64,000 bases of DNA from an uncultured Alcanivoracaceae bacterium. GTDB lineage: Bacteria; Pseudomonadota; Gammaproteobacteria; Xanthomonadales; Marinicellaceae. The notes under the pieces are model-generated. The model had not been told where the DNA came from. It did no database searches and saw only the letters and a list, made by a program, of their open reading frames with translations. The position numbers were made by a program, and so were the translations under genes. The stretch is taken from positions 12,676-76,675 of the forward strand of contig CAJXVJ010000001.1 in assembly GCA_913061105.1 (NCBI GenBank). The letters run 5' to 3'. Shown here piece by piece: positions 2,254 to 58,052 of the stretch; within the stretch, counting starts at the first letter, position 1; every line of letters starts with the position of its first letter.

Positions 2254-2255
2254 CA

Positions 2256-2545: not shown

Positions 2546-2571
2546 TAAATTAAACATTTCTAAAGAACCTT

Positions 2572-4184: not shown

Positions 4185-4335
4185 CACTTGCTCATTAGTT
4201 CCCTCTCTTGAGGGGATTGAGGTATGAATATTGGTCAACAATAACGCCATGTGTTTCATGGTGATTAGCTTTTGATGTTTATCTCTGTAATCTCGGTGAT
4301 TTATTCTTAATTGTTGCCTGGTTGGGCCATTAATT

Positions 4336-22000: not shown

Positions 22001-22055
22001 ATAGGTATAAAAATAATTTAAAATTACTTGATGAGAGTATGTATTTGTTTTTCAT
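19023..22055 (-). CDS. membrane-anchored alkaline-phosphatase-superfamily (sulfatase / LTA-synthase / phosphotransferase-like) protein with a long unassigned C-terminal region
   Basis: 1010 aa. It has about 5 N-terminal TM helices. The sulfatase-type core shows FVFMLDEFP, SSVTDISVPAILSG and IIIVSDHGSAF. About 470 further residues are unassigned and include a GGWAAD…YVFIDDVLVA module. Confidence 0.65.
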   Translation of the reverse strand: MKNKYILSSSNFKLFLYLFLFWSLAVAQPLMTLFGEQPVFLIAHEVRGWSLILMTLVLNFIPPVILWITILLSGLISHVLKEALSKGFIVIMLVLFLLPFVKDLHIYLGFVSVILISIAILFFLLKIQLVRDIALWFSPVSLVFILIFWFFSPASGLISTQGFYKSNTGSESQGPIFVFMLDEFPLLSILKSKGKIDTSRFPTFAKIAEDFTWYPNTTAISSVTDISVPAILSGIEPKDSSYLGTFQQYPQNIFTQISASHSIHAKEYATNMCPPHLCVSGISDPYRLLIEDSIISYLHIIYPQSLIEHLPPIGDRWIGYLREMKNEEKERHSYSERLAEFKDFINTIDNYQENTLHYLHILLPHSPWRILPDLTLYGFFEKDGTPGELDRKDSGERKIPSLWENNTWSTQLSWRRHLLQVGAADKLIAEAIDEIKRLGLYDKATIIIVSDHGSAFIPDLSRRYAHDENIPQIASIPLFIKYPNQTKGKVDTRNASNMDVYPTLMDVYNIDSSFETEGKSLIKDDKRNNPLVIYQEKGIKTEIPENYDGLIKQYFIDKNDLFMGDGWNSVYNPIGSTDFINKDVSALDINRTHPNAINLLNANLFNKINVKGKYLPVYYRLEKLIEDNNNEILVAINGKLVSHCFMFTKKERECAGMIDPKILMSSTTQSSLKLQFFSVIKKQNKYTVNELLVNNIVNAKIQRIGENDNVIFESGKVVPIKKNGNIYGIASIRLGNNNLMYQIGGWAADTMKGEVADQIYVFIDDVLVATSSTGLKKPYLVSKFGYKSIVDSGYQITIPIDQYPQIENHKIRVFASRGKNHLNELNYHSNIDQRKLFEAFNSATNRVTPIKKTALLALKANNIDDLNNINSIKFDAFNKDFKLISSGDWHKINKHTRWIGSNVAVIIPLKEGVSSLTLSITAKPLVYPGRHDKQRLIIYANDKPVKTLEFTEKTNHEIQIDLDKHVKVQSVIIKLEMPDAIAPADFVDSKDKRKLSLFLTDFRIDQNNLN

Positions 22056-35206: not shown

Positions 35207-35326
35207 GCAATTCTCTTTTATAAATCTATTACTCTTAACAATGTTTGTATTGGGCTTCATACAATAAAACGGTGTGATCATTTTAACCCATTATTAGTCT
35301 TAATTGATGGTTTTTAATTGCGCTAA

Positions 35327-39350: not shown

Positions 39351-41942
39351 TTAGGAGTTAGAGCTCAAAAAATCATTAGCAAATCTTTGTAACACTCCAC
39401 CAGCATCATAAACAGAAACCTCGTCTTCGGTATCTAGTCGACATTTGACGGGTATCTCAATGCTTTCAACATTTTTGCGGTGCATAATCACCCGCATATT
39501 TGAGCCTGCTGCGATTTCGCCTTGGACATCATAAGTTTCTGTGCCATCAATTTTGTAAGTTTTTCGGGTTTCATTGTTGGTGAACTCTAACGGCAAAACA
39601 CCCATGCCCAATAAGTTTGTGCGGTGAATGCGTTCGAAGCCTTCAGCCACAATAACTTCAACTCCTGCTAATCGCACGCCTTTGGCGGCCCAGTCTCTGG
39701 ATGAGCCTTGTCCATAATCGGCACCGGCAATAATACACAGCGGTTGAGAACGGTCCATATAGGTTTCGATGGTTTCCCACATGCGCATTTGGGTTCCTTC
39801 TGGCTCTAATCTGGCCAGTGAACCTTGTTTGATTTCACCGTTTTCATCAAGAACCATTTCATTAAACAGTTTTGGATTAGCAAAAGTGGCACGTTGTGCG
39901 GTTAAGTGGTCTCCCCGATGGGTGGCATAAGAATTGAAGTCCACTTCTGGCAAACCCATCTTATCCAAATATGCACCAGCGGCGCTGGATAATTGTATTG
40001 CGTTTGATGGGGACAAATGATCGGTGGTGATGTTGTCACCCAATACTGCCAAGGGTCGCATGCCTTTCATGGTACGTTTTGCTGCCAGCGCTCCTTCCCA
40101 ATACGGCGGTCGGCGAATGTAGGTGCTTTGTGAACGCCAATCATACAAAGGATTGCTTTTTTCGCCAGAATCAATGTTGAGCTTAAACATGGGCTCATAG
40201 ACTTTGGTGAAGTGTTCTGGTTTGACACTGGCCTTAATAACAGCATTGATTTCTGCATCTGTTGGCCAGATGTCTTTGAGGGTAATTTCATTGCCCTTTT
40301 GATCTGTTCCTAATACATCTTTTTCAATATCAAATCGAATCGAACCGGCTATGGCATAAGCCACCACCAATGGCGGTGAGGCCAAAAAGGCTTGGTCGGC
40401 ATTTGGATGAATGCGGCCATCGAAATTTCGGTTGCCAGAAAGCACGGCGACTGAAAATAAATCGCGGTCTTCGATTTCTTTTTTAATCTTTGGGTCTAAA
40501 GCGCCACTCATGCCATTACAAGAGGTACAGGCATAACCCACCACGCCAAAGCCTAACTGTTCTAATTCGGGCAATAAGTTTGATTCTTCTAAATAAAGGG
40601 TAACGGCTTTTGAACCTGGTGCCAATGATGTTTTGACCCAAGGTTTACGGGTTAATCCCAACCTGTTTGCATTGCGTGCGATTAACCCTGCGGCTATCAT
40701 GTTGCGCGGATTACTGGTATTGGTACACGAAGTAATGGCAGCAATGATACAAGCACCATCAGGCATGAGTCCATCATGTGAATGATAATCACCGGTGATG
40801 CCTCTGGCAGCCAAGTCTTTGACGGGTAATTTGGTGTGTGGATTGGAAGGTCCTGCCAATGTGCGCTCTACTTCTGATAAATTAAAAGTCAGTACACGCT
40901 CATATTCGGCGCCAACCATGTCATCTGCCCACAACCCTGTTTGTTTGGCATAGGTTTCAACCAATTTTACTTGTTCTGCATCTCTGCCGGTTAAATTTAA
41001 ATAATCTATGGTTTGTTGGTCGATTGAAAACATGGCAGCTGTGGCGCCAAACTCAGGAGTCATATTGGATATGGTAGCGCGATCACCCAATGTTAAGGCG
41101 CTTGCTCCTTCACCATAAAATTCTATATAACTTGAAACCACTTTTGAGTTGCGCAAAAATTCGGTGATAGCCAAAACAATATCAGTACTTGTAATGCCTT
41201 CTTGTGGTTTGCCTAATAATTCTACTCCAATAATGTCTGGCAGGCGCATATAAGATGGACGACCCAACATGACGCTCTCGGCCTCTAATCCACCCACTCC
41301 AACAGCAATAACTCCCAAAGCATCGACCATCGGTGTGTGTGAGTCCGTGCCAACCAAAGTATCTGGAAAAGCCACACCATCGCGTGCTTGTATTACTGGC
41401 GACATGCGCTCTAAATTAATTTGATGCATAATACCATTGCCAGGAGGAACCACATTAACGTTTTTAAAGGCTGTTTTGCACCAATCGATAAAGTGAAAAC
41501 GGTCTTCGTTTCGGCGGTCTTCGATGGCTCGGTTTTTCTCAAAAGCATCTTTTTCAAAACCAGCATGTTCAACAGCCAAGGAGTGATCGACAATTAATTG
41601 CGTTGGTACCACTGGATTGATTTGTGCAGGATCGCCGCCTTTATCAGCAATCGCATCGCGCAAACCCGCCAAATCAACAAAGGCCGTTTGACCCAAAATA
41701 TCATGACAGACTACACGGGCAGGAAACCAGGGAAAATCCAAATCGCTTTTGCGTTGAATCAGTTGGCTTAAAGCCGCATTTAAATCTTGTGGGGGACAAC
41801 GGCGCACCAAGTTTTCAGCCAAAACCTTCGAAGTATACGGCAATTTGGCATAAGCGCCTGCTTCAATGCTTTCAACGGCTTGTTTGGTATCGAAATAATC
41901 CAACCTTGTGTTGGCTAAGGGTTTGCGAAAATTTGTGTTCAT
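39351..41942 (-). CDS. acnD: Fe/S-dependent 2-methylisocitrate dehydratase AcnD
   Basis: 863-aa aconitase-family protein. The N-terminus (LDYFDTKQAVESIEAGAYAKLPYTSKVLAENLVRRC) and the length match AcnD rather than AcnA. prpF and prpBC lie nearby. Confidence 0.8.
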   Translation of the reverse strand: MNTNFRKPLANTRLDYFDTKQAVESIEAGAYAKLPYTSKVLAENLVRRCPPQDLNAALSQLIQRKSDLDFPWFPARVVCHDILGQTAFVDLAGLRDAIADKGGDPAQINPVVPTQLIVDHSLAVEHAGFEKDAFEKNRAIEDRRNEDRFHFIDWCKTAFKNVNVVPPGNGIMHQINLERMSPVIQARDGVAFPDTLVGTDSHTPMVDALGVIAVGVGGLEAESVMLGRPSYMRLPDIIGVELLGKPQEGITSTDIVLAITEFLRNSKVVSSYIEFYGEGASALTLGDRATISNMTPEFGATAAMFSIDQQTIDYLNLTGRDAEQVKLVETYAKQTGLWADDMVGAEYERVLTFNLSEVERTLAGPSNPHTKLPVKDLAARGITGDYHSHDGLMPDGACIIAAITSCTNTSNPRNMIAAGLIARNANRLGLTRKPWVKTSLAPGSKAVTLYLEESNLLPELEQLGFGVVGYACTSCNGMSGALDPKIKKEIEDRDLFSVAVLSGNRNFDGRIHPNADQAFLASPPLVVAYAIAGSIRFDIEKDVLGTDQKGNEITLKDIWPTDAEINAVIKASVKPEHFTKVYEPMFKLNIDSGEKSNPLYDWRSQSTYIRRPPYWEGALAAKRTMKGMRPLAVLGDNITTDHLSPSNAIQLSSAAGAYLDKMGLPEVDFNSYATHRGDHLTAQRATFANPKLFNEMVLDENGEIKQGSLARLEPEGTQMRMWETIETYMDRSQPLCIIAGADYGQGSSRDWAAKGVRLAGVEVIVAEGFERIHRTNLLGMGVLPLEFTNNETRKTYKIDGTETYDVQGEIAAGSNMRVIMHRKNVESIEIPVKCRLDTEDEVSVYDAGGVLQRFANDFLSSNS

Positions 41943-42724: not shown

Positions 42725-44035
42725 TTGAAAACTTCTTCTGAAAAATATACCGCTCGTTCTGCAACATCAGTAATAGTTGCCAACATGATTGGAACTGGTG
42801 TCTTCGCAAGCCTTGGATTTCAGCTGGTTGATATTCAATCGGGTTTTGTCATTCTTATGTTGTGGGCAGTGGCCGGTTTAACTGCTTTGTGTGGTGCTTT
42901 AAGTTATGCTGAACTGGGTTCTGCCATGCCACGAGGTGGTGGTGAATACCACTTTTTAAGCAAAATATACCATCCAATGGTTGGTTTTGTCACCGGTTGG
43001 GTATCCGCTACAATTGGGTTTGCTGCTCCTGTTGCAGTTGTGGCTATTTTGTTTGCTGGATATTTTACTTCTGTTTATGACATTATCAATGACCAATTAT
43101 TGGCTGTTGGTTTAATTGTAACCATAACTGCTATTCATATTACTAACCACAAAAGCAGCGGAGGATTTCATCAATTAATGACTTTGTTTAAATTATTGGT
43201 GATTTTTGCTTTTATTGGTTCTGCATTGTTTCTGGTTGATAATCCTCAAGATATTTCTTTCATGCCATCGATAGCTGATAAGGATATAGTTTTTAGTGGC
43301 TCTTTTGCTGTTGCACTAATATTTGCTAATTACGCTTATATGGGTTGGAATTCAGCCACTTATTTATCCAGTGAAATTGAAAACCCAAGTAAAAATTTAC
43401 CAAAAATACTATTAACAGGAACCCTGATAGTTGCCATATTGTATGTGATTTTAAACTTTGTATTTTTATATGTCGCTCCAATTTCTGAAATGGTAGGGGT
43501 TAAAGAAATTGGTTATGTGGCTGCCCAACATATTTTTGGTGAAAAAGGTGCTGCCATAATGGGCATTAGTTTATCTATTGTTCTCATCTCTTCAGTAAGT
43601 GCCATGACCATGGCAGGACCTCGCGCTTTTCATGCCATAGGACAAGACTATACTGTGTTTTCAAAGTTGGCCAAAACCAACCAACACAATATTCCTGTTA
43701 ATGCCATTATTTTACAATCAGCTCTTAGTATCTTATTTGTGTTGACTTCTTCTTTTGAATTTATTTTAGTGTTTGCGGGTTTTACATTAGGCGTCAGTAA
43801 TTTTGCTACTGTTTTAGGCGTATTAGTATTAAGAAAAACCCAACCCGAATTGAAAAGACCCTATAGAACATGGTTATATCCTTTAACGCCAATTCTCTAT
43901 TTATGTCTAATGGGCTGGACCTTAGTTTACATCATAAAAGACAAACCAGACGAGGCATTAATGAGCTTGGGTGTGATTGTCTTGGGAATAATCATGTACT
44001 TAATATCCAGCGCATTATCTAAACGAAGCGCTTAA
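42725..44035 (+). CDS. APC-superfamily amino acid permease
   Basis: 436 aa, 12 TM helices. The N-terminal ANMIGTGVFASLGF motif must lie after the start, so the TTG start at 42725 is kept. Confidence 0.65.
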   Translation: MKTSSEKYTARSATSVIVANMIGTGVFASLGFQLVDIQSGFVILMLWAVAGLTALCGALSYAELGSAMPRGGGEYHFLSKIYHPMVGFVTGWVSATIGFAAPVAVVAILFAGYFTSVYDIINDQLLAVGLIVTITAIHITNHKSSGGFHQLMTLFKLLVIFAFIGSALFLVDNPQDISFMPSIADKDIVFSGSFAVALIFANYAYMGWNSATYLSSEIENPSKNLPKILLTGTLIVAILYVILNFVFLYVAPISEMVGVKEIGYVAAQHIFGEKGAAIMGISLSIVLISSVSAMTMAGPRAFHAIGQDYTVFSKLAKTNQHNIPVNAIILQSALSILFVLTSSFEFILVFAGFTLGVSNFATVLGVLVLRKTQPELKRPYRTWLYPLTPILYLCLMGWTLVYIIKDKPDEALMSLGVIVLGIIMYLISSALSKRSA

Positions 44036-45423
44036 GCTTTAACGGTTTTATCTTTTGTTTTAAATAAAGCAATGCCGAAATAAGCAAAAACAATGGCTAA
44101 CAAAGGATTGAAATAGTTCAATAGAGCGTATGGAGCATAGTCTAAGGTTTGTACGCCCAATGTTGTGACATAAAATATACTGGTTGTGCTCCAAGGAATC
44201 AAAGCGGTGGTCAAGGTTGAGCCTTCTTCAACTGATCGAGATAAGACCGATGATTTAACACCTTTGTCTTTGTAGGCTTTTTTGTACAATTGGCTATTTA
44301 GAATAATCACAATATAGGTTTCTCCCATTGATAAGTTACCAGCAAAGGCCGTTGCTATGGTTGCTGCTACCAACGTTCCTGCTGATTTTATTCGAGCAAT
44401 AATGCCTTTAAGCAAAACTGTTAAAAATCCTGCACTGTGTAAAATCCCACCCATTGCAATCGCCATGAGCGACAATAACAATGTCCATGCCATGGAATAG
44501 AGACCTCCTCTTCCCAACAAATCATCAATCATTTTTGTTCCTGTTTCTGCAGGTTTGTTTTCCCACAATGCATTGGCAACCGTTGTGACAGAGTTTTCCT
44601 GATAGAGTATGGCAATAATGCTGGCCACAATAATGCTGGCAGTCATGGTCACTTCAGGAGCGTATCTTTTCATGCTTAATACGAACAGAACAATAATTGG
44701 AATAAAAGTAATAAAAGGATTGAGGTTAAAATGAGCTGCCAATACGCCTCGAATGGTTTCAATCTCTGCAAATGAAGCGGTTTGATCCACACCATATCCC
44801 ATGTAGGCAAACACCACTAATACAATTAAGAATGTTGGAACCGTTGTATATAACATAGATCGAATGTGTTCGTACAAGTCGGTATCAGAACTCATGGCGG
44901 CCAAATTTGTGGTATCAGAAACCGGCGACATTTTATCACCAAATGTGGCTCCCGAAATAATCATGCCCGCAACCAAAGGCAAAGGAATATTAAGCACCGT
45001 GCCTATGCCAATAAAGACCACACCCAAAGTACCTACTGTGCCCCATGAAGTGCCGGTGGCCAATGACATAAACGCACACAAAATTAATCCAACTGGTAAA
45101 AACCATTGGGCAGTTATCCAATCAAGCCCATAATAAATTAATGCCACCACAGTGCCACTTTTCATAAAGGAAGCAATCACCATGCCAATCAGCAAAAACA
45201 CGTAAATAGCAGAAAGAGAGCGTGAAATGCTCTCGCCCATCATGCGCCGAATGTCACCAAAACTGTGCCCCAATAATCTTGCGTTGATCGCCACCCAAAT
45301 TAATACAAGATATAAGACGATGTGCAAAGAAATGCCCATCTTGAAAAAACCAAATGAAATCATTAAAACTAAAGTGAGAAAAACCAGAATTGCATGGGGT
45401 AACGAACTGCTCTTTACTTGCAT
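44032..45423 (-). CDS. nhaC: Na+/H+ antiporter NhaC family
   Basis: 463 aa, polytopic. Length and helix pattern are typical of NhaC. Confidence 0.65.
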   Translation of the reverse strand: MQVKSSSLPHAILVFLTLVLMISFGFFKMGISLHIVLYLVLIWVAINARLLGHSFGDIRRMMGESISRSLSAIYVFLLIGMVIASFMKSGTVVALIYYGLDWITAQWFLPVGLILCAFMSLATGTSWGTVGTLGVVFIGIGTVLNIPLPLVAGMIISGATFGDKMSPVSDTTNLAAMSSDTDLYEHIRSMLYTTVPTFLIVLVVFAYMGYGVDQTASFAEIETIRGVLAAHFNLNPFITFIPIIVLFVLSMKRYAPEVTMTASIIVASIIAILYQENSVTTVANALWENKPAETGTKMIDDLLGRGGLYSMAWTLLLSLMAIAMGGILHSAGFLTVLLKGIIARIKSAGTLVAATIATAFAGNLSMGETYIVIILNSQLYKKAYKDKGVKSSVLSRSVEEGSTLTTALIPWSTTSIFYVTTLGVQTLDYAPYALLNYFNPLLAIVFAYFGIALFKTKDKTVKA

Positions 45424-45475
45424 TTTTAACCTTTAAATTTTAATATTGTTATTATCATAAAACTTCTGGTGTTAA

Positions 45476-46276
45476 ATGTCTCGTTTAAAAGGAAAAATTG
45501 CTCTGGTTACTGGTGCTGCCCGTGGTATTGGTCAAGCCGTTGCTGAAATGTTTGTTGCCCAAGGCGCCCGTGTCATTGTCTCAGATATAAACAATCAAGA
45601 AGGCAAAATTGTTGCTAGAAGTTTGGGCGAAAATGCTGAATACATATCACTGGATGTAGGAGTTGAATCTGATTGGGAAAAGGTTTCAGAACATATTTTA
45701 AACGCTTATGGTCAGTTGGATATATTGGTGAACAATGCTGGCATTACGGGCTTTTTTGAAACCTCTGGCCCCCATGATCCAGAAAATCTAGACCTTGAGA
45801 GTTGGCACAAAGTGCACCAAACCAATTTAGATGGTGTGGCACTGGGCTGCAAATATGCAATTGCATTAATGAAAAAATCAAACGCTGCCAGTATTGTCAA
45901 TATTTCTTCACGCTCTGGCATTGTTGGTATACCAGGTGCTGCCGCTTATGCCTCAAGCAAAGCTGCTGTGCGAAATCACAGCAAATCAGTGGCGCTTTAT
46001 TGCGCTGAGCAAAGTTACAAAATACGTTGTAATTCCATCCACCCTGGAGCCATTCTCACTCCCATGTGGGATGCCATGCTTGGTGATGGAGAGGCAAGAA
46101 TTGAGGCGATTAAAACAGTGGCCGCCGATGTGCCGTTACAAACCATGGGCGAACCAGATGATGTGGCTTATGCTGCGGTTTATTTGGCATCAGATGAATC
46201 TAAATACATTACCGGCATAGAATTAAATATCGATGGTGGAATTTTGGCAGGGAGTTCTGCTGCGCCCACACGTTAA
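45476..46276 (+). CDS. short-chain dehydrogenase/reductase (SDR)
   Basis: [10 protein letters not shown] cofactor motif, NNAG, and the catalytic YASSK (YxxxK). Confidence 0.8.
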
Positions 46277-46828
46277 AGGTTTTTCTTCTTTTTTTCATTA
46301 TAAGCCCTATTAATGCGGCATGTTGACAGGTGACAAAGTTTTAACTTGGTGGTTTTTCTTAATCTTTTATTTCGTTTTGACTATTTTTACAACCAGCTTT
46401 GTATTGTTGCTAAAAGCTGCTAACATTCTTTAAAAACATGACAAAATGCTCGTATTTACTCACTTGTGATAAAAGCAAGCCTGTTTCCTGTTTTGTCTAA
46501 TCTCTTTTTTTAATCTTTGTTTACATTGTTTATGTTAAATAAATATCAAAAAAAAGGTAGTATTAAATACCACTAAATTATTTTAATTTTTGACTTGTTT
46601 TTAAAGGCATATGAAGTTTACAGCTCTTAACATATTTAAAATTGAGAATGTGTTTTCAAAATTGATTACCTTTTCTAATGCTGTGCTCGTTAAAAACACC
46701 TGTAAACACTACCCCAAAGCGTTGGTTAAAAAGTTGTTTGGTAAAATCTATTTTTTCTACCAAGCCCTTATCAATACCGTTCGGCCCCCTCAATTAAATG
46801 ACACTCCTTATCAAAGGATAAAAACATT

Positions 46829-49800
46829 ATGAAAACAAAATTTCTCTTTTTAGGTTTCCTTATCATAAACCACTCGTTCGCTGCAAACTCCTCTGCCATT
46901 AAAGCAGAACCTAACGATGAGGCCAAAACTGTTATAACGCTGAACTCTGTTGATAGTAGCCCAAAAACATTAGGTTTTCCTAAGTCACTGACCTATACTG
47001 CTACATTATCTAATCAGGTAAAACTACGAAAAAAGAAAACCCACAAAATCACCATTGAATATTACAAAAAAGACAGTAATATTCTTTTGTTTGAAGAAAC
47101 TCACAAAAAAATTTCAATCATTGAAAATAAAGTACCTTTAAAGCTAGGCAAAGGGAAGGCAAAAACAATTAAGTACAGCTCATTACAAGCCTTGTTTGCC
47201 AATAATACTGAAGTAGAAATGTCTTGGACAATTGATGGCGAAAAGCTCTATCCTAAAATTGGTATATTGCCGTCTGGTCACTCTTATAAATCAGGATTGC
47301 TGTTAAAAGGTGTTAAGGTCAATGACCAAGCCCTTCATTGGAAAGGGTTTGATAACCCTTCTGCCGTCTCAGCGTTTGCTTCCACTACATTGACTCCTGT
47401 CAGGACAAATATAGTCCATGACTCAAATATAAAAACCAACCCTTTCGAACTCGAAATGAATGGCCCCTACCTAAGTATTCCTGTTAGAGACATGCCACTT
47501 GCCGTAAGGTCAACAACTCCTTTTGCGGAAAAAGAAGTCAATACCCTTCGACACGAACAACTATATGATAAAAATGGTGCTCGGTTTGGAACCAAGTCCC
47601 CCAAACAAGACGATCAATTGGCTCAAATGTCAACAAGAAACCCTGGCGGCTTAAGAACACCCACTACCTCATTAGATTTTCCTGGTATGCCAAACATCAG
47701 TGGCTTTTATCCTCCTGACATAGAAGGAGCTGTTGGCGAAAACTATTATGTTCAAATGGTTAATTCAACCTATGCTATATTTAATAAAAGTGATGGCTCA
47801 ATTGCTCAAGCGGCTCGTAACACTAACACATTGTGGTCAAGCCATGGGGGAAGGTGTCAATCTGATAACGATGGAGATGCCATTGCGCTTTATGATGAAC
47901 AGGCACAAAGGTGGGTTCTCACTCAATTTGCTGTTACTGCAGCACCAGAGTCGGTTTGTTTTGCTATCTCACAAACCAGTGATCCTACTGGTGCTTATTA
48001 CACTTATGATTTAGCAGCACAGCGTTTTCCTGATTATTACAAATTAGGGGTCTGGCCTGTATCAGGCAACAACGCCTATTTTATGGGAACAAACTCTGGC
48101 TTACAAGGTCAGTACGATGTTTATGCCTTAGACCGTGAAAACATGTTGTTGGGTCTGCCTGCCAGGCCAGCTCAGTTTTTTCAAAGTTACCCTAATTTGT
48201 TAATGCCTGCTGACAGTGATGGCGATACACCTCCTCCGGCAAATGCCCCCGGCTTGTTGTATTCAATTCGAGATGCTGGTGAAGCCTATTTTGGAAACCC
48301 TGCAAATGACAGCATAGACGTCTATGAGTTTGACGTTGATTGGGCAAATTCATCAAATTCGACTTTTACCTTGTCACAAGTTATCACTAATGCTGATGGT
48401 TTAAGCAACTTTAATTGGACTGTTTGTGGTTTTTTTGTCAGTGATTGTTTGCCTCAAGGAGGCACTTCTGTAAACATTGACAGCGGTTCTTGGTGGCCAC
48501 AACAAAGACTTCAATACCGAAATTTTGGCGGTTTCGAAACTTTGGTTGGAACTTGGACTGTGGATGTTTTAGCTGTAGGCGACCACGCAGCACCAAGGTG
48601 GTTTGAGTTGCGTAGAAATATTGGTGCCGGCAGTTGGAATTTGCGCCAAGAAGGCACTTTTGCCCCTGATTCCGACCACCGTTTTAATCCAAGTATATCA
48701 ATGGATGCTTCAGAAAACATTGGTCTAGGTTATTCTGTTACATCCTCAAGCTCTTTTCCTTCTATCCGATTTACAGTTCATGATGCATCTGTTGATCCAT
48801 TGGGAACTATGGAGCCAGAAGAAGTCATGGTAGCAGGTGGAGGTTCACAAACCGGCACTGCTAACCGTTGGGGGGATTATGCATCAATGGATGTTGATCC
48901 TGTTGATGATTGTACTTTTTGGTTTACTTCTGAATATTATACTTCTACTAGTGCAGCAGGGTGGACAACCCGCATTGGCGCGTTCAAAATTCCTACGTGT
49001 AAAAATTATTTGATAACTGCCGTAGATGACACCATTGAAGTCTGTAAAGCAGATGACACCACAAGTTTTAGTCTAAGTTTGAGCAATAGTTTCGATGCCA
49101 CGACCAATATGAGTCAAGTCGGTTGTCCAGCTGGTGCCAGTTGTGCCTTTTCTCCCAACCCAGTTGTTAACCCTCTATCAACCACTGATTTAAACATTAC
49201 TGGCTTGGCAGGAGCTACTGGTGGAGCGCACTTGATTACCGCTACTGCTACGGACTCAGTAGATAACTTAGCAACAAACGACATTGATTTAAACCTGTTT
49301 TTATTTAATGGAAACCCAGGAACTCCAGTTTTATCCTCTCCGTTAGATGGAGCCTTTGCCCCTTCATTGGGCCCAGATCTAACCTGGTCTGCCGTGACTG
49401 ATGGGCAAGATTATTTTGTTGAAGTTGACAACGATCCTGCTTTTGGCAGTGTGGACTTTTCAACTACCGTTAATGGGGGATTAACCACAGCAGCCGCTTC
49501 GGGATTAAGTGAAAATACGTGTTATTATTGGCGTGTCACTCCATCGAATTTATGTGGCAATGGAACAACTTCTAATGTTTTTGAATTCTATACAGGAGCC
49601 TCACAATCAACAACTGATTTTACCAGTACTGATGTTCCCATATCAATAGGTACTGTGCCAGTAACCATTACTTCAACATTGACAATAGCAGGTGTTGGAG
49701 CCATTAATGACGTGAATGTTGTTGACATAGATATGACCCATTCTTATGCAGGGGATTTAACCCTAACATTAGAATCACCTACAGGAACAGTGGTGACAAT

Positions 49801-52800
49801 CATGAACGTTGGTTGTGGAACCGACAATAATATAGACTTAAGCTTGGATGACGAAGCGGCTGGCACATGGGGTTGTGCTGGTGGTGGTCCTGTTGGAGGC
49901 GGGGGTACCTTCCAACCAAGTAGTGCTCTTTCTGCTTTTGATGGAGAAAATGCCAATGGTGTGTGGACACTTACAGTAATTGACGGTTTTAATGGAGATG
50001 GTGGATCCTTAAATGGTTGGGGATTAAACTTTGAAAATTTTGCCGACAATGGCAATCAATGCCCTTCTGGCTTTACTGTTGGTGGTAATGTTTCTGGGTT
50101 AACGGGTTCTGGATTGGTTTTACAAAACAACCTAGGTGATAATTTATCCATAGCAGCTGATGGTAGTTTTGTCTTTCCAACATCATTACCAGATTTTGAT
50201 CCTTATGCAGTAACTGTATTAACACAACCAAATACGCCAAGCCAAACATGTTCAGTAACTAATTCTTCTGGTAATATTTCTGGAGCAAATGTTGTTAGTG
50301 TTTCTGTTACTTGTACTACCGATTCTTTTACCGTTGGAGGAAATATTTCTGGATTGACAGGCTCAGGTTTAGTATTACAAAACAATGCAGGGGATAATTT
50401 ACCCATAGCAGCGGATGGTAGTTTTACTTTTTCTGCTTCATTAGTGGATTTAAGCTCATATGTGGTTACCGTATTAACTCAGCCCTCTTCTCCGAATCAA
50501 TCATGCGCAGTGACAAATGCATCAGGAAACTTAGCAGGTACAAATATAACAAACGTGGCCATTTCATGTGGAGCTGTTACCTATACAGTTGGTGGCAATG
50601 TTTCTAATTTGACCGGTTCTGGATTGGTTTTACAAAACAACCTAGGTGATAATTTGCCCATAGCTAATGATGGTAGTTTTGTCTTTCCTACATCATTACC
50701 AGATTTTGATCCATATTCTGTTACCGTATTATCCCAACCTAATACTCCCAGTCAAACATGCACGGTGACCAATGCTTCTGGTAATGTTTCTGGATCAAAT
50801 ATAACCAATGTAGATGTCAGTTGTGCATTAACTCCTGACATTTCTTTTGCTGGGACCAATTTAATACAAGATGTTTGTATCAACCCTGGTCCAACAGCTA
50901 TCAACCCTGTTACACTTACCTCCATCGCTTTAAATGGCTACAACAACACCATTAGTTTGGCCTTTAACCCGGTATTGCCAACAGGAATTAGTGGAGGCTT
51001 TAGTAATAACAATTTTGTTCCTGCAACGGCCCCTGGAACAGATTCACTATTAAACCTAAATATAGATAACACGGCAACCGCTGGTTTAAACACAATAACA
51101 ATTGAGGCCTCGGGAGCGGGTATTTCTACAAAATCAATTGATGTTGATTTAACTGTCATTTTTGGTTTATCTGCAAGCCCTGTTGTTTCTTCACCCAGTG
51201 ATGGCAGCATTAGTGTGGCAACCAACACCTCTTTTACTTGGAGTGCTATTAGTGGTGCCAATAATTATGATATAGATATTTCTACCGATCCAACTTTTTC
51301 ATCCATTGATTTCTCTGCCAATGTTGCTGGAACCTCTTTTTCCCCTGGTGCTGCCTTAGCAACAGGTACAGTCTATTATTGGAGAGTAAGAGCTAATAAC
51401 ACCTGTGGTGCAACCAGTTTTGTTATTGCTGCTTTTGAAACCATAGGAGGGGGAGGAAGTACAACTATGTCTTTTTGTAATTCACCTGCTCTTGCGATAC
51501 CGGACAATGACAGTAACGGAACATCTGATACATTAAACATAGCTACAATTGCAACCATAACTGATATCGATGTCAGTTTAGATGTTTCTCATACATGGGT
51601 TGGGGATCTAATTTTTAATGTTGAAAACGATACAACCAACACAAATGTCACAATCATAGATCGACCAGGTCGTGATGGTTCGGGGTTAGGGTGTTCAAGA
51701 AATAACATTGATACAACCCTTGATGATGATTCGGTTACTCCTGTAGAAGGGGTTTGTGCCAATCCAGCGGATCCCACAATTGGAGCAGGGCCGTTTTCAC
51801 CAAACAACCCGTTAAGCGCTTTTAATGCTGAAAGTTTGGCAGGAGATTGGACGCTAAGTATTTCTGATAACGCAAACAATGATGATGGCACAGTTAATGA
51901 ATGGTGTGTAATTGCTACATATGGCTCTGGTTCTGGCCTAGCAGCAGCAGATTACAGTGACTTAGACAGTTCTTACGGAGTAGCGCGACACGAAGGAGAT
52001 GGAACATCTAGGCTTGGAAATAATTGGACGGCTGATTTGTCATTTGTTGAAGGTGGCGACTCTCCAATCAGCGAAGGAGGTTCTGGTGATGATGATGGCA
52101 TTGTTGCCAGTGGTCTTTGGACAGAAGCCAGCCCTAATGCGGTCATTGAAGCAACGGTTAGCACCAGCGGTTTTTTGTACTGTTGGTTTGATTGGAATAA
52201 CGATGGCACATTTGAAGGAAGTGAGTTAGGTGTCTCTTCTTCTTTATCATTAATTAGTCCATTGAGCAATAGCATTCCTGTCACCGTTCCCTCAACATCC
52301 TTTGGTGATGGTAATGATGAATTACTTGAAACTCGTTGTCGTTTTTATGCTGTTGAACAAACTTTGGCCCCACCTAACCCAATAGGCTCAACGGACTCTG
52401 GTGAAGTGGAAGATTATAAACTACCAGCCGATCAACTAACCCCTGTCACACTGGCGTTTATTAAAAGTGAGAGAATCAACTCATCATTAGTAATAGATTG
52501 GACAACTACTACAGAGTCTGGAACGATAGGCTTTAACGTTCTTGGGCTTGTAAACAATGTTTGGAGACAATTAAATGCTCAACCAATCTCTGCAAAAGGC
52601 ATGAATTCAGTCAGTCCACATGATTATCAATTTAATGCTGGAGACTTAATGATAGAGGCCTTTAAAATTGAAGAGTTGACAATAAATGGTGAGAAACAAT
52701 CTTACGGTCCTTATGTCTCTTATAAAACACATGGCAAGTACCCTAATAACAGGATAATAAACTGGCAAAGTATTACACAGGAATCAAATCTATTGGCATC

Positions 52801-54916
52801 AAATAGACAAGAGAGCTTAAAACAAGGCTTTAGTTTTGTAAAAGTTTCTGTTAATGAAACAGGAATACAAAGAATCACCCATGAAGACTTGGTTTCTGCT
52901 GGCGTTGATTGGCAAGGTGTTAGTGCCAATGAAATCTCAATAAGTTTTGAAAACAAATCTATTGCACGCCTTGTATCTAGTGATGTTTTTGGACCAGGGT
53001 CTCATATTGATTTTGTTGGTTTTACTGCTGATTCCTTGTATACAAATACTAACGTTTATGTGTTAAAGCTTGATGTATACCAAAGTAAAAATGCTATTGC
53101 CATAACTGATGACTCATATGGTGTTGATAATTCTGCTTATCACATGGCAACAAGCATTAACAACAAGGATGTTGTATATTCTTTTGCTTCACCTACCAAT
53201 AGCCCCTGGCTTTTACAATCCATGTTGGCTTTTACCTCTCCTAAAGAATGGTCTTTTCCAATCAATGCCCCATATTTGTTAAATAACAATGTTTCTTCAA
53301 CATTAAATGTTAACGCCTGGGGTGGCACAGATTGGCCACAAACAAATGACCACCACTTACAAGTCTTGTTAAATAATCAACTTGTTAGTGATGTCTACAG
53401 CGATGGACTGGATACAATTAATATTACAGAAAACTTAAATCATTCACAAATCAACGGTGCTTCTTCGATAACATTTAGGTTGCCTGCAGATACGGGTGTT
53501 GATTATGATTTAATTCAACTTGATAGCTTTTCAATAGATTTTCCTGCTGAAATACACGCCATAAACAATAAGCTGTCTTTTGTTCCTGTTGTTAACACTT
53601 CAATTAATCCTGATGTTATACATACCAATGGTTTTGAAAACAATTTTGCAGATGATGGTTTTGTCGTTAAAGGGCTATCAACCCAAGAGACAACTATTTA
53701 TGCAGTAAATGGGTCTAATCTATACGATTTTCCTCTTAAGAAAACCAATTCTGTCACTGGTGGGTATGAAATAGAAATACCGAAGATACCAAGTACAGGT
53801 GTTAAGTATTACATTAATAGTAACAATGCTTTAATACGGCCCAGTTTGTCTTTGGCTAACAACTCAAGTTTGGATTTAAATCAACAATATGATTATTTGA
53901 TGATTTCTCACCCTGATTTTATAAGTTCTTTAAATCAATTGGTCAACTATCATCAAGCAAGCGGACTAAGTGTTTTGGTTGTGAACGTTGAAGATGTTTA
54001 TGCTGAATACTCTTTCCACAGGAAAGATGCTAATGCCATAAAAACTTTTATAAAGGATGCCAATTTAATGACGGGCATTGAAACTGTTTTACTGGTTGGG
54101 AGTGACACTTCAGATTATTTAGATAATTTGGATCTAGGCTCTAAAAGTTTTGTTCCTACATTATATTTTCCTACTGACGAAATTATTAAATATGCTCCTG
54201 TTGACTCGTTATTTGTCGATACCAACAACGATTTAATTCCAGATTTATCTATTGGTAGATTGCCCGTTCGAACCAATATTGAGTTGCAAGATATCATAGA
54301 TAAAATAATACAATATGCTAATCGTAGCTATAAAGATACTGCTATCTTTGCTTCTGATAGATCGTCCTCATTTGATTTGTTTTCTAATCAAATGGTCGGA
54401 CTACTACCTCAAAATTGGCAGGTTGAAAAAGCTTATGTATCTGTTCTTGATATTAATGCGGCTCAATCATCCATAATCAACAGTATCGAATCTGGCGTTT
54501 CTCTTACTAGTTATTTTGGTCACTCAGGCCCTAATACTTGGTCATTTGAACACCTGTTTGACAACAATGACATTTTGGCACTAAACAACCTAAACAAGCC
54601 AACTGTAATTAATCAGTTTGGTTGTTGGAATACTTATTATGTCATGCCTGAGTTTGATACCATGGCACACCACTTTATGAGCCAAGAAAACAAAGGTGCC
54701 GTGGCAGTATTAGGGGCCAGTACCTTGACGCAAAGTAATCATGAATCAATGTTGGGTAACCTTCTAATTCCTAGAATAACCCAAAACAATGTTCCTGTAG
54801 GTTTAGCTATTCTTCAAGCCAAACAGGCATTGGCCCAAAACCACCCTGGTTATTTAGATGTTCTTTTAGGTTGGAACTTATTAGGTGATCCTATGATTTA
54901 CCTAAATCAAGAGTAA
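46829..54916 (+). CDS. giant secreted multidomain protein (2695 aa): propeller-like region, 2x (FN3-like + P-domain), 3x 85-aa repeats, GEVED domain, C-terminal peptidase C25-like unit
   Basis: Uninterrupted 8088-nt ORF. AAGGA lies about 10 nt upstream, and there is a signal peptide. P-domain motifs: HSYAGDLTLTLESPTGT / GVWTLTVID and HTWVGDLIFNV / GDWTLSISD. GEVED motif: SGEVEDYKL. C25-like motifs: FGHSGPNTW and QFGCWN. Confidence 0.85.
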   Translation: MKTKFLFLGFLIINHSFAANSSAIKAEPNDEAKTVITLNSVDSSPKTLGFPKSLTYTATLSNQVKLRKKKTHKITIEYYKKDSNILLFEETHKKISIIENKVPLKLGKGKAKTIKYSSLQALFANNTEVEMSWTIDGEKLYPKIGILPSGHSYKSGLLLKGVKVNDQALHWKGFDNPSAVSAFASTTLTPVRTNIVHDSNIKTNPFELEMNGPYLSIPVRDMPLAVRSTTPFAEKEVNTLRHEQLYDKNGARFGTKSPKQDDQLAQMSTRNPGGLRTPTTSLDFPGMPNISGFYPPDIEGAVGENYYVQMVNSTYAIFNKSDGSIAQAARNTNTLWSSHGGRCQSDNDGDAIALYDEQAQRWVLTQFAVTAAPESVCFAISQTSDPTGAYYTYDLAAQRFPDYYKLGVWPVSGNNAYFMGTNSGLQGQYDVYALDRENMLLGLPARPAQFFQSYPNLLMPADSDGDTPPPANAPGLLYSIRDAGEAYFGNPANDSIDVYEFDVDWANSSNSTFTLSQVITNADGLSNFNWTVCGFFVSDCLPQGGTSVNIDSGSWWPQQRLQYRNFGGFETLVGTWTVDVLAVGDHAAPRWFELRRNIGAGSWNLRQEGTFAPDSDHRFNPSISMDASENIGLGYSVTSSSSFPSIRFTVHDASVDPLGTMEPEEVMVAGGGSQTGTANRWGDYASMDVDPVDDCTFWFTSEYYTSTSAAGWTTRIGAFKIPTCKNYLITAVDDTIEVCKADDTTSFSLSLSNSFDATTNMSQVGCPAGASCAFSPNPVVNPLSTTDLNITGLAGATGGAHLITATATDSVDNLATNDIDLNLFLFNGNPGTPVLSSPLDGAFAPSLGPDLTWSAVTDGQDYFVEVDNDPAFGSVDFSTTVNGGLTTAAASGLSENTCYYWRVTPSNLCGNGTTSNVFEFYTGASQSTTDFTSTDVPISIGTVPVTITSTLTIAGVGAINDVNVVDIDMTHSYAGDLTLTLESPTGTVVTIMNVGCGTDNNIDLSLDDEAAGTWGCAGGGPVGGGGTFQPSSALSAFDGENANGVWTLTVIDGFNGDGGSLNGWGLNFENFADNGNQCPSGFTVGGNVSGLTGSGLVLQNNLGDNLSIAADGSFVFPTSLPDFDPYAVTVLTQPNTPSQTCSVTNSSGNISGANVVSVSVTCTTDSFTVGGNISGLTGSGLVLQNNAGDNLPIAADGSFTFSASLVDLSSYVVTVLTQPSSPNQSCAVTNASGNLAGTNITNVAISCGAVTYTVGGNVSNLTGSGLVLQNNLGDNLPIANDGSFVFPTSLPDFDPYSVTVLSQPNTPSQTCTVTNASGNVSGSNITNVDVSCALTPDISFAGTNLIQDVCINPGPTAINPVTLTSIALNGYNNTISLAFNPVLPTGISGGFSNNNFVPATAPGTDSLLNLNIDNTATAGLNTITIEASGAGISTKSIDVDLTVIFGLSASPVVSSPSDGSISVATNTSFTWSAISGANNYDIDISTDPTFSSIDFSANVAGTSFSPGAALATGTVYYWRVRANNTCGATSFVIAAFETIGGGGSTTMSFCNSPALAIPDNDSNGTSDTLNIATIATITDIDVSLDVSHTWVGDLIFNVENDTTNTNVTIIDRPGRDGSGLGCSRNNIDTTLDDDSVTPVEGVCANPADPTIGAGPFSPNNPLSAFNAESLAGDWTLSISDNANNDDGTVNEWCVIATYGSGSGLAAADYSDLDSSYGVARHEGDGTSRLGNNWTADLSFVEGGDSPISEGGSGDDDGIVASGLWTEASPNAVIEATVSTSGFLYCWFDWNNDGTFEGSELGVSSSLSLISPLSNSIPVTVPSTSFGDGNDELLETRCRFYAVEQTLAPPNPIGSTDSGEVEDYKLPADQLTPVTLAFIKSERINSSLVIDWTTTTESGTIGFNVLGLVNNVWRQLNAQPISAKGMNSVSPHDYQFNAGDLMIEAFKIEELTINGEKQSYGPYVSYKTHGKYPNNRIINWQSITQESNLLASNRQESLKQGFSFVKVSVNETGIQRITHEDLVSAGVDWQGVSANEISISFENKSIARLVSSDVFGPGSHIDFVGFTADSLYTNTNVYVLKLDVYQSKNAIAITDDSYGVDNSAYHMATSINNKDVVYSFASPTNSPWLLQSMLAFTSPKEWSFPINAPYLLNNNVSSTLNVNAWGGTDWPQTNDHHLQVLLNNQLVSDVYSDGLDTINITENLNHSQINGASSITFRLPADTGVDYDLIQLDSFSIDFPAEIHAINNKLSFVPVVNTSINPDVIHTNGFENNFADDGFVVKGLSTQETTIYAVNGSNLYDFPLKKTNSVTGGYEIEIPKIPSTGVKYYINSNNALIRPSLSLANNSSLDLNQQYDYLMISHPDFISSLNQLVNYHQASGLSVLVVNVEDVYAEYSFHRKDANAIKTFIKDANLMTGIETVLLVGSDTSDYLDNLDLGSKSFVPTLYFPTDEIIKYAPVDSLFVDTNNDLIPDLSIGRLPVRTNIELQDIIDKIIQYANRSYKDTAIFASDRSSSFDLFSNQMVGLLPQNWQVEKAYVSVLDINAAQSSIINSIESGVSLTSYFGHSGPNTWSFEHLFDNNDILALNNLNKPTVINQFGCWNTYYVMPEFDTMAHHFMSQENKGAVAVLGASTLTQSNHESMLGNLLIPRITQNNVPVGLAILQAKQALAQNHPGYLDVLLGWNLLGDPMIYLNQE
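50072..50836 (+). repeat. three in-frame tandem repeats of 255 nt (85 aa) inside the giant gene
   Basis: Units start at 50072, 50327 and 50582. Each begins (F/Y)TVGGN(V/I)SGLTGSGLVLQNN and ends in a Cys. Units 1 and 3 share identical runs of about 40 nt. Confidence 0.9.
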
Positions 54917-54940
54917 TCTTAGGCTTATGGTCTGTAAACT

Positions 54941-56434
54941 CTATTTGTTTGCAGACCTATAATTGCTTTCATTAGATTTTGTAATGATTAAAAGACCTGA
55001 ATACATTAATGCGCCATTAACTAACAACAACTCGAAACCAAATTTATAACCAAATAAAAGTTGTTCAGAGTAAATATCTATAATATATGTCAATATCGGA
55101 GCAAGCACTGCAATGTATGGAACATACATGTCTCTGATTGATTTTTTACTGAAAATTCCAAAAGCAAACAAGCCCAATAATGGTCCATATGTAAAACCAG
55201 CCATTCTAAATAAGTTTTGGATGACAGAGGCTTCCAAAACATACCTAAATATTAAAATTGTAGCAAATAAAACCAAGGTAAACCCTATGTGTATGAGCAT
55301 ACGTTTAACCGTTGGTGTGTTTATCTTGCCCAAAATATCAACACAAAATGATGTGGTTAGTGATGTTAAAGCAGAATCTGCTGTAGAATAAGCGGCTGCC
55401 AATAATCCAACTAAAAAGACAACACCCAAATAGGCGGGCATGTGATTAAGGGCAATTGTTGGGAATGTTTTATCAGTAACTATCGCACCAGCCTCGTTTA
55501 CTGGCAAAGACAAACCAACTTTTTCAGCATAAATGTATAAAAAAGCACCCATTGCCATAAAAATTACATTAACAATAACTAAAATAACAAAAAACCACCT
55601 GATGTTTTTTTGAGAGTCTTTTAAGTTTTTACAACTGAGGTTTTTCTGCATCATGTCTTGATCAAGGCCTGTCATGACAATGGCAATAAAAGCACCACCT
55701 AAAAACTGTTTAAAAAAGTTATTTTTATCTTCCCAACCACCATCAAAAAAGAATATTTGTGAATGCTGACTGGAATTTATTTCATTGTATACGCTTGAAA
55801 AATCAAAATTAAGCTGTGTAGCTATTGTCATGACCGCCACTATAACGGCTATGATCATAAACAGGGTCTGTAAGGTGTCGGTCCAAATAATGGTTTTAAT
55901 GCCACCTTTTACCGTATAACTCCAAATTAACACCAAACTGACCAATAAAGTTAACCAAAAAGGAACACCAAAGTGAACAAAAATAAAATCATGTAAAACC
56001 ATCGTCATTAAATACATCCTGAACGATGCACCAATAATTCGAGACAGCATAAAAAAAACAGAACCTGTTTTTTGAGAATATTTCCCGAAACGCTGGTTTA
56101 AATAACCATAGATAGATATTAGGTTTCTCTTGTAGTACAAGGGCAATAACACATACATAATAACGGCATAACCCACTGCATAGCCCATCACCATTTGTAA
56201 ATAGGCAAACTGGTTGTTTAATACCGAACCTGGCAATGATACAAATGTGACTCCAGATAATGATGCGCCAACCATTCCAAATGCAACCACAAACCATGGA
56301 GAAGTTTTGGAGGCATTATAAAAATCAAGGTTGTTGGCGTCTTTAGAAGTGTAATGCGCAATAAAATACAACACGGTAAAATAAAGTATAATGACCAAAG
56401 CCAATATTGTAGGCGTTAAGTTTAAAGCGTTCAT
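54941..56434 (-). CDS. sodium:solute symporter family transporter
   Basis: 497 aa, about 13 TM helices, SSF-like pattern (…GGIKTIIWTDTLQT…). Confidence 0.7.
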   Translation of the reverse strand: MNALNLTPTILALVIILYFTVLYFIAHYTSKDANNLDFYNASKTSPWFVVAFGMVGASLSGVTFVSLPGSVLNNQFAYLQMVMGYAVGYAVIMYVLLPLYYKRNLISIYGYLNQRFGKYSQKTGSVFFMLSRIIGASFRMYLMTMVLHDFIFVHFGVPFWLTLLVSLVLIWSYTVKGGIKTIIWTDTLQTLFMIIAVIVAVMTIATQLNFDFSSVYNEINSSQHSQIFFFDGGWEDKNNFFKQFLGGAFIAIVMTGLDQDMMQKNLSCKNLKDSQKNIRWFFVILVIVNVIFMAMGAFLYIYAEKVGLSLPVNEAGAIVTDKTFPTIALNHMPAYLGVVFLVGLLAAAYSTADSALTSLTTSFCVDILGKINTPTVKRMLIHIGFTLVLFATILIFRYVLEASVIQNLFRMAGFTYGPLLGLFAFGIFSKKSIRDMYVPYIAVLAPILTYIIDIYSEQLLFGYKFGFELLLVNGALMYSGLLIITKSNESNYRSANK

Positions 56435-57282
56435 TGTCTTAAAAAACTCTCAATTATTGAAAAAACTTCAGGTGCGTTGTCCATGTGTAAGTGGTGGTGG
56501 CCTTCAATTGAAATGAACTCACTGGGGTTTAGTGCTTTTATTCTTTGTTCTACACTTTTATAACTTAATGCGTAAGTGTAAGGTTTTGCCAAAATTAGTT
56601 GCGTTTTGGGCTTTTCGGATGAAAGCATGTCTTGTATTACTGTTTCTGAAAACCTAAACGGACTGCGCAACCTTAATCGCTTATCGGTTCGCCAATGATA
56701 ACCTTTTCTTGTTTTTTTTAATCCTCTTTCTACCATAAGATAAAGGTTGTTTTCTTTAATCGGCGTTACCTTTTTTCGGGCCTTTAATGCGGTTTTTACA
56801 TTGGGATAATAATGCTTGTGTTCAGTTGTGTGATTGTGCCATTGGATTAATGCTTCTTTTAAATTGGTCGAAGCCGTACCTTTTTCATATGCTGGCACTG
56901 GGCCAATATTTTCTATCATAACAAGTTGATCAATTTTTTCTGGAAAACTTACAGCAAACATTTGTGCCATCGCTGCACCCATAGAGTGACCTAATAGTAT
57001 CGGCTTTTCCCAATTAAGGTTGCTTAGTACGTCTTGAATATCCAGAATAAAATCAATAAAATGCGTAAAATGCCCTGGAGCTCTGTGATCAGAATGACCA
57101 TGTCCAGCAAAATCAATGGCAACCACTTCGTAGCCTGATTCAGCCAACAAAGGCGCCAATTGTGCAAACGAGGCGGCGTTGTCTAGCCATCCGTGTAATG
57201 CCAATATTTTTCTCGGGTTACCTTTTCCCCAACACAGGCCAGCAATTTTCCCAAACTTACAGTTAAATGAAACTTCTTTCAT
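56431..57282 (-). CDS. alpha/beta-fold hydrolase
   Basis: The start MKEVSFNCKFGKIAG overlaps the uppP stop by 4 nt. Motifs HGWLDNA and the nucleophile elbow GHSMGA. Confidence 0.7.
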   Translation of the reverse strand: MKEVSFNCKFGKIAGLCWGKGNPRKILALHGWLDNAASFAQLAPLLAESGYEVVAIDFAGHGHSDHRAPGHFTHFIDFILDIQDVLSNLNWEKPILLGHSMGAAMAQMFAVSFPEKIDQLVMIENIGPVPAYEKGTASTNLKEALIQWHNHTTEHKHYYPNVKTALKARKKVTPIKENNLYLMVERGLKKTRKGYHWRTDKRLRLRSPFRFSETVIQDMLSSEKPKTQLILAKPYTYALSYKSVEQRIKALNPSEFISIEGHHHLHMDNAPEVFSIIESFLRQ

Positions 57283-58052
57283 TGTAAAAATACCACGATT
57301 AGGGCGCCCAAGATTATTCGATACCACATAAATGAAGCCATAGAAATTTTGTTAATTAATTTGAGAAATACTTTTATAGAAAACAGTGAAGCAAGAAAAC
57401 TAACGATTAATACTGTCAATATACCCACAATATTATAATCACTGGGTTGTTGGTACAATTTCATAAAGCCATAACCCGTAGTCATCAGCAATGCTGGAAT
57501 CGCCAAAAGAAACGAAAATCGAGCGGCTTTTTTCCTATCAAAGCCCATCGACATGGCAGCGCTCATTGTCACTCCCGACCTTGATGCACCTGGAATTAAT
57601 GCCAATATTTGTGAAAATCCTACGATAACAGCTTGCTTAATTCCAAACTCGCTTTGGTTTGGTTTGGTTTTTTGAACCTTGTCTGATAAAAACAAAATCA
57701 CACCAAATATAATACTAGATGCTGTTATAACCATTGGAGAACGCAGATGTTGCTCTATGCTGCCGGCAAAAATATAACCGCAAATGGCCAATGGAATACT
57801 GGCCAAGGCCAGTTGAATAAATAATTTCCAGTTTTTTCCTTTAAATAGTTTTAACAACTCATCCTTAAAGTACCACATAACAGCCAACAAAGAACCTCCA
57901 TGCGCAGCAATGTCCATAACCAAGCCTTGGTCGGGCCATTTCATTATTTTTGAAACCAAAATAAGATGGGCCGATGATGATATTGGTAAATATTCTGTTA
58001 TGCCTTGTATCAAAGCAAGCACCAACCATTGGATAAAACTGGTTTCTTCCAT
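57279..58052 (-). CDS. uppP: undecaprenyl-diphosphate phosphatase
   Basis: 257 aa, BacA/UppP motifs (QGITEYLPISSSAHL, PGASRSG). Confidence 0.9.
   Translation of the reverse strand: MEETSFIQWLVLALIQGITEYLPISSSAHLILVSKIMKWPDQGLVMDIAAHGGSLLAVMWYFKDELLKLFKGKNWKLFIQLALASIPLAICGYIFAGSIEQHLRSPMVITASSIIFGVILFLSDKVQKTKPNQSEFGIKQAVIVGFSQILALIPGASRSGVTMSAAMSMGFDRKKAARFSFLLAIPALLMTTGYGFMKLYQQPSDYNIVGILTVLIVSFLASLFSIKVFLKLINKISMASFMWYRIILGALIVVFLQ

Follow-up and report, generated by a model that had tools for sequence, protein, structure and literature searches.

What kind of enzyme ends a giant secreted protein of a marine gammaproteobacterium, and what would it do there? The question is raised by a stretch of 64,000 nucleotides, hereafter the window (GenBank assembly GCA_913061105.1, contig CAJXVJ010000001.1), in which a single open reading frame (ORF) of 2695 codons plus a stop codon extends from an ATG at position 46829 to position 54916 on the + strand. 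A preliminary description had taken this uninterrupted frame for a secreted mosaic protein with an apparently intact, gingipain-like C25 protease at its C-terminus, in an architecture that it did not recognise. The uninterrupted frame and the intact protease are borne out by our analyses; the likeness to gingipains and the singularity of the architecture are not. The giant protein is a C25 peptidase of an undescribed, PorU-like subfamily outside type IX secretion systems (T9SS), and its architecture is not unique. A suitable label is 'PorU-like C25 peptidase, non-T9SS', not gingipain or proprotein convertase.

Three Pfam families reached threshold in the giant protein: Peptidase_C25, P_proprotein and GEVED. 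The Peptidase_C25 match covers aa 2356-2690 (53894..54898, + strand; E=2.9e-66), with 224.7 bits against a cut-off of 23, and spans positions 1-372 of the 374 in the profile. The catalytic domain is full-length and its dyad is in place. His2565 (FGHSG; 54521..54523, +) aligns with His211 of RgpB, and Cys2599 (QFGCW; 54623..54625, +) aligns with Cys244 of RgpB and with the Cys of the PorU sequence ...TATCDF; both codons had been placed correctly in the preliminary description. His211 and Cys244 are the catalytic residues of RgpB (PMC9559808, PMC10882967). One paper prints His221 for the gingipain His, yet names Gly210 and Gly212 as its flanks (PMC4357240). The predicted catalytic domain has the alpha/beta fold of caspase-haemoglobinase type expected for MEROPS family C25 (clan CD): in Foldseek searches the AlphaFold 2 (AF2) model matched RgpB and Kgp (E from 1e-15 to 1e-17), and also separase and TPR-CHAT.

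Is the domain likely to be an active enzyme? Both His2565 and Cys2599 are kept in 148/148 sequences of the C25-unit family, and the same 148 are invariant at D2426, D2429, D2459, D2464, G2476-R2477, W2571 and Q2596. Stalk modules in the giant protein (GEVED and immunoglobulin (Ig)-like repeats) and in its relatives (DUF11, SdrD_B and SpaA) would also suit a pure adhesin, with the C25 unit reduced to a catalytically dead binding or scaffold module. We regard a dead module as highly improbable, given a dyad without exception and many catalytic-domain residues that are invariant across sequences only about 35% identical, and the pseudo-enzyme reading was dropped.

The catalytic domain closes a larger unit of 830 residues (aa 1866-2695; 52424..54913, +). 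Its AF2 model (predicted local distance difference test score, pLDDT, 82; predicted template modelling score, pTM, 0.77) contains four beta domains, a helix and an alpha/beta catalytic domain. Of the solved structures, PorU of Porphyromonas gingivalis (PG0026, PDB 6ZA2) is the best match by sequence, by profile and by predicted fold, and it covers nearly the whole unit. A PDB sequence search found PorU at E=2.5e-12 vs 7e-5 for RgpB. With the family profile the values were 4.9e-29 for PorU, in three collinear pieces reaching back to PorU residue ~15, and 6e-16 for RgpB. Foldseek ranked 6ZA2 first, at E=1e-27 over 805-819 of 830 columns; RgpB and Kgp ranked after it, with only the catalytic domain matched (367 columns for RgpB). 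The sole NCBIfam matches were two PorU models at aa 2002-2693, both below their cut-offs (NF033707, 132.9 bits vs 420; NF052324, 116.3 vs 450). Judged by sequence and predicted structure, the whole 830-aa unit is PorU-like rather than gingipain-like.

The comparison with the gingipains RgpB and Kgp (1CVR, 4IEF, 4RBM) shows where the first reading falls short. The catalytic fold is shared (Foldseek E~3e-17, target-normalised TM-score 0.66, root-mean-square deviation 3.2 A over 367 columns), as are the aligned His211 and Cys244. However, there is no Propeptide_C25 prodomain in the giant protein (no PF08126 match), the column aligned with the Arg/Lys S1 determinant varies across the C25-unit family, in an uncertain loop alignment, and the catalytic domain lies C-terminal to the accessory modules, whereas in gingipains it is N-terminal. 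Gingipains continue into an Ig superfamily domain and a T9SS C-terminal domain; here nothing follows. The preliminary description had already remarked on the missing sorting domain, and we found no match to PF18962 or TIGR04183, the models for the T9SS C-terminal domain, in the giant protein, which ends 5 residues past the catalytic domain.

In PorU the beta domains precede the C25 catalytic domain in the same order as here, and the catalytic His and Cys align. The giant protein is nevertheless not a PorU, because the parts that follow the catalytic domain in PorU are absent, the curated cut-offs were failed and the host is gammaproteobacterial. Identity in the structural alignment is 15-16% only; the post-catalytic domains of PorU have no counterpart, nor does its T9SS C-terminal domain; and 1865 residues of other modules are fused in front of the 830-aa unit. 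In the P. gingivalis T9SS, PorU serves as C-terminal signal peptidase and sortase (PMC4560394, PMC11285876), and a passage in a further paper describes the T9SS as restricted to Bacteroidota (PMC5445135). Within the 64-kb window no T9SS gene was seen.

The preliminary description had treated a C25 domain at the extreme C-terminus as an oddity. It is the norm in a large family. We searched the 830-aa unit exhaustively with phmmer against 1.84 billion representatives of clusters at 50% identity, of which 10597 matched at E<=1e-3 and at least 2315 at E<=1e-30. Among the 147 best representatives the match covers essentially the whole unit, and 126/147 end no more than 5 residues from it. These 147 proteins are 692-5174 aa long and carry 2-4340 residues before the unit. 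The same unit ends thousands of proteins with unrelated N-terminal regions. The region before the unit is mostly without a Pfam domain in 40 shorter members; the remaining shorter members have DUF11, SdrD_B, SpaA, CarboxypepD_reg, GEVED or P-domain modules there. Some versions have just ~130-230 residues before the unit. One protein (P0172) consists of a signal peptide or anchor and then the unit alone, and another (P0245) has a signal peptide and then a unit complete but for the first beta domain.

The records behind these sequences are named 'hypothetical protein', 'C25 family cysteine peptidase', 'DUF11 domain-containing protein' or 'proprotein convertase P-domain-containing protein', and the named sources are metagenome-assembled genomes (MAGs) of Gammaproteobacteria/Xanthomonadales, Deltaproteobacteria, Nitrospirae and Verrucomicrobia. 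To our knowledge, family C25 is familiar almost entirely from the gingipains of Porphyromonas and from PorU. We found neither a dedicated curated model nor a paper for this large family. Complete PorU-like units, with the dyad always intact, end secreted proteins in phyla for which no T9SS has been described, and the C25-unit family is a plausible evolutionary source of PorU. A tractable question follows: are such units general proteases, self-processing modules or sortase-like enzymes? Interest would be high if the unit proved to be of the sortase-like or the self-processing kind.

For the giant protein we lean, with moderate confidence, towards the first of these. On the evidence of sequence and structural models it would be a Sec-exported multi-module protein whose C-terminal 830 residues form an active C25 endopeptidase, PorU-like, T9SS-independent and acting in trans, behind exchangeable N-terminal modules. 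Export would begin through the Sec-type signal peptide. The protein would then probably cross the outer membrane, with a type II secretion system as the most plausible route. The catalytic end would be the C25 unit, which would cleave other proteins, while the propeller, the P-domains, the Ig-like repeats and the GEVED stalk may attach it to a substrate or surface or place it there, or may add a second activity. Because stand-alone units such as P0172 exist, the unit would not be merely a cis-acting processing module.

Several points weigh against a general trans-acting protease. The closest solved relative, PorU, is a C-terminal signal peptidase/transpeptidase and not a general protease. The P1 specificity cannot be read from the sequence, and nothing shows an Arg/Lys preference: Asp2516 aligns with the S1 residue Asp163 of RgpB, but that column holds S, K, T, A or R in the family, in a loop that aligns uncertainly. 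The route across the outer membrane is only inferred, literature searches for the C25-unit subfamily returned no paper on any member, and free exchange of the head fits equally well with a generic service to passengers, be it release, maturation or anchoring.

Such a service could be performed in cis, as in the self-processing adhesin/protease that the preliminary description suggested. The C25 unit might cut its own polyprotein, for example at linkers between modules or at the junction of GEVED and unit, and so free or mature an N-terminal passenger, much as gingipain polyproteins are processed. The unit is always C-terminal, its passengers vary widely and can be exchanged, clan CD has documented cases of self-processing in families C25 and C80 (PMC4357240), and a low-confidence loop with a conserved motif lies inside the unit. 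We nonetheless think self-cleavage unlikely, if a serious candidate. Units without a passenger exist (P0172), as do the versions with ~130-230 preceding residues; an 830-aa unit of four domains plus a catalytic domain is large for a single-turnover role; and the junction has no conserved cleavage motif beyond the first beta-strand of the unit (TPVTL). The precedent for autoprocessing, the cysteine protease domain of MARTX and TcdA/TcdB toxins (PMC4357240), is likewise a clan-CD protease inside a giant multi-module secreted protein. It belongs to another family (C80 vs C25), no sequence match to it was observed, and the comparison is one of analogy only.

The conserved loop motif brings in another candidate role. 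The sequence VIHTNGFE (aa 2263-2270; 53615..53638, +) is the local form of a pattern, [LI]F.[DN][GS]FE, and lies in an insertion loop of the unit. The pattern stands 0-5 residues from the C-terminus in five secreted paralogues from Marinicellaceae/Lysobacterales (L008:7917-11180, L014:7908-11258, L015:2-1720 and 1862-4870, L016:6557-11257), which have propeller, MAM-like, P-domain or cadherin-like architectures, and also in the protein P0005. About 15 distinct C25-unit proteins, some of them only ~36% identical to the query, also have it in the insertion loop of the unit (pLDDT <50 in the model), 421-440 residues before the end. In P0233 it lies in a tail after the unit (SIFSDGFETGDASRWSTAVN). 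The motif could serve as a signal for sorting or for recognition, or could be just a linker typical of the lineage.

Because of these GFE-type tails and the loop motif, and because PorU is itself a C-terminal signal peptidase, a sortase-like reading was considered. The unit would then be a T9SS-independent analogue of PorU, a C-terminal signal peptidase or sortase-like transpeptidase acting on the ...[LI]F.[DN][GS]FE tails of co-secreted proteins, and its internal loop motif would serve as a pseudo-substrate or latency element. Collinearity of the whole unit with PorU, the terminal position of the motif in the five paralogues and P0005, its constant place in the loops and its presence in the P0233 tail are all consistent with this. 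Yet the loci compared had been fetched for homology to the giant protein and form a biased sample, a tail that stops at ...GFE leaves nothing C-terminal to cleave, most family members lack the loop motif, and the motif may be a mere common linker of the lineage. We give this role only a slim chance. Equally doubtful is its broader form, in which the unit is the core of a type-IX-independent PorU counterpart that is widespread in Proteobacteria, Nitrospirae, Verrucomicrobia and other phyla and processes tails or its own passenger, with PorU a specialised offshoot of an older family. The trans-acting endopeptidase remains the reading that we prefer.

Could a frame of this length be an artefact of assembly? 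By our own estimate, at ~6% stop codons per random codon, 2695 stop-free codons would occur by chance with a probability of ~e^-175. A chimera of two or more genes would have to be considered, since the sequence derives from a metagenome assembly, and mid-gene there is a modest rise in GC content, to 0.44. The identical protein is, however, encoded on 3 independently deposited contigs, the longest of 129.7 kb (TREM17-1 metagenome scaffold_34). The proposed search for homologues of the same domain order returned full-length, collinear orthologues from independent assemblies: P0002 is 64% identical over 100% of the query, P0003 and P0004 are 57% identical, and the P0004/P0247 cluster occurs on 17 contigs of up to 308 kb, with entries in GenBank. 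The giant gene is also syntenic in a related locus, L002. Because of the exact protein on 3 contigs and the collinear orthologues, a chimera is extremely unlikely, and this explanation was dropped.

A plausible ribosome-binding site, AAGGA, lies 11 nt 5' of the giant ORF. The upstream spacer (46277-46828) is unusually long at 552 bp, is AT-rich and has no DNA similarity to related loci; a simple scan of these ~550 bp found neither a sigma-70-like promoter on the + strand nor a terminator. The public annotation (ENA) places a 73-aa ORF at 46611-46832 (+), whose end overlaps the start codon of the giant gene in an ATGA. No Pfam match is on record for it, and it is probably spurious, because it has no homologue in any related locus.

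The modules before the C25 unit follow one another in the order given in the preliminary description, with some qualification for the FN3-like modules. The protein begins with a Sec-type signal peptide (aa 1-18; 46829..46882, +). On inspection the n-region of the sequence MKTKFLFLGFLIINHSFA, followed by AN, is basic and the core hydrophobic, with S-x-A at -3/-1; cleavage is predicted between SFA and AN, and there is no lipobox Cys. The N-termini of orthologues are similar in this region.

For the N-terminal 800 residues no Pfam or NCBIfam family was matched, and the PDB, searched by sequence and by profile, offered no useful match. The AF2 model of this region (mean pLDDT 68) shows a beta-sandwich at aa ~54-215 (46988..47473, +; local pLDDT about 90), a low-confidence or disordered linker at aa 228-276, and a beta-propeller at aa ~279-725 (47663..49003, +), which contains RWGDYASMDVDPVDDCTFWFT. 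The motifs described earlier as propeller-like therefore do lie in a predicted propeller, but no function follows from it. With this model Foldseek retrieved generic propellers at E~1e-6 (CylK, pseudaminidase/sialidases and WD40 proteins). A sialidase-type function was considered and set aside, as only generic fold similarity stands behind it. Proteins of ~1500 aa also bear this head, with PKD, MAM-like, P-domain or cadherin-like modules after it. Over its ~450 residues it is well conserved, with about 48% identity to the ~1500-aa PKD-domain proteins (P0006-P0012), and its invariant motifs are GDAI.LYDEQA, RFPDYYKLGVWP and RWGDY...DP.D.CTFW.

The propeller is followed by an FN3-like module (aa 830-921) and the first P-domain (Pfam match at aa 965-1068), together at 49316..50032 (+), which were delimited with Pfam and by self-comparison of the protein. 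P_proprotein was matched in two stretches with 75.2 bits, the best at 965-1068, and both the Peptidase_C25 and the P_proprotein matches are significant. The FN3-like modules stand less firmly: the Pfam fn3 family found no match at threshold in the giant protein, and the support is a sub-threshold score (23.8 bits vs a cut-off of 25) for the equivalent module of the L017 paralogue. Three tandem 85-aa repeats of beta-sandwich type come next (aa 1083-1337; 50075..50839, +). They are 64-78% identical to one another and are detectable at the protein level only, as Tandem Repeats Finder reported no tandem repeat in the DNA; the orthologues P0003 and P0004 have a single copy. A second pair of FN3-like module and P-domain (aa 1448-1693; 51170..51907, +), seen both in the self-comparison and as two P_proprotein stretches, is a duplicate of the first (aa 830-1065) at E=4.7e-35. 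A GEVED domain (aa 1783-1865; 52175..52423, +; Pfam, 52.1 bits) leads into the C25 unit.

The GEVED domain takes its definition from CshA, a streptococcal adhesin (PMC10952558). Fibrillar adhesins of that type share with the giant protein the GEVED domain, the repeated Ig-like or beta-sandwich modules and the mosaic shuffling. They differ from it in that here there is no NR2 domain and no recognisable C-terminal anchor, and a protease unit takes the C-terminus.

Two P-domains without a neighbouring subtilase had been noted as a further peculiarity. Their isolation is real, as there is no PF00082 match in the giant protein. P-domains without a subtilase are nevertheless common among the matches of the giant protein, and syntenic genes carry an S8 head on the same body. 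As in kexin-like proteases, which combine a subtilase with a P-domain, there are two P_proprotein domains, each after an FN3-like module, and the genes of L003, L004 and L017 have a Peptidase_S8 head before the same body. The difference is that a beta-propeller head stands here in place of the S8 domain. The P-domains are orphaned because they belong to a subtilase-type body whose head was exchanged.

This exchange can be followed at a single chromosomal position. The giant gene occupies one slot (44032-57327 in the window) that is shared with L002, L003, L005 and L017; it adjoins the symporter, hydrolase and UppP genes, with NhaC opposite where the locus reaches that far. The window protein (2695 aa) and the L002 protein (2497 aa) have a beta-propeller head, those of L003 (2136 aa) and L017 (2501 aa) have a Peptidase_S8 subtilase head, and the L005 protein (1262 aa) has no head, its body being fused to a new signal peptide. 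In window coordinates the constant body is aa ~1335-2693, and it comprises Ig-like, FN3-like, P-domain and GEVED modules and the C25 unit. Between L003 and L005 the flanks are 90-96% identical and the bodies 82%, and the whole head differs. Relative to the flanks, the giant gene is inverted in L003, L005 and L017 vs the window and L002. The 2134-aa protein of L004, whose contig lacks the shared flanks, matches that of L003 at 57% identity over its full length, head region included, and the 1925-aa protein of L006 has a propeller head. One constant body with a propeller, a subtilase or no head at all illustrates clearly how nature shuffles the domains of secreted proteins.

By the sequence of its genes, the window is from Marinicellaceae/Lysobacterales within the Gammaproteobacteria: the genes that flank the slot are syntenic with their counterparts in MAGs labelled Lysobacterales, Marinicellaceae or 'Alcanivoracaceae', at 62-86% identity. 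On one side of the giant gene lie the methylcitrate genes AcnD, PrpF and PrpC, a GNAT acetyltransferase, an amino-acid permease, NhaC and an SDR gene; on the other a sodium:solute symporter, two alpha/beta hydrolases, UppP, an acyltransferase and gyrB. The window further encodes RNase R, TrkA and a TonB_C protein, and Rfam and tRNA scans of it returned nothing. The methylcitrate-cycle genes upstream include a PrpC-like citrate synthase (31708-32841), PrpF (34031-35281) and AcnD (39351-41942), the last with 1670.8 bits to TIGR02333. A 1010-aa ORF at 19023-22055 on the - strand has a sulfatase/phosphodiesterase-type domain only at aa 200-508.

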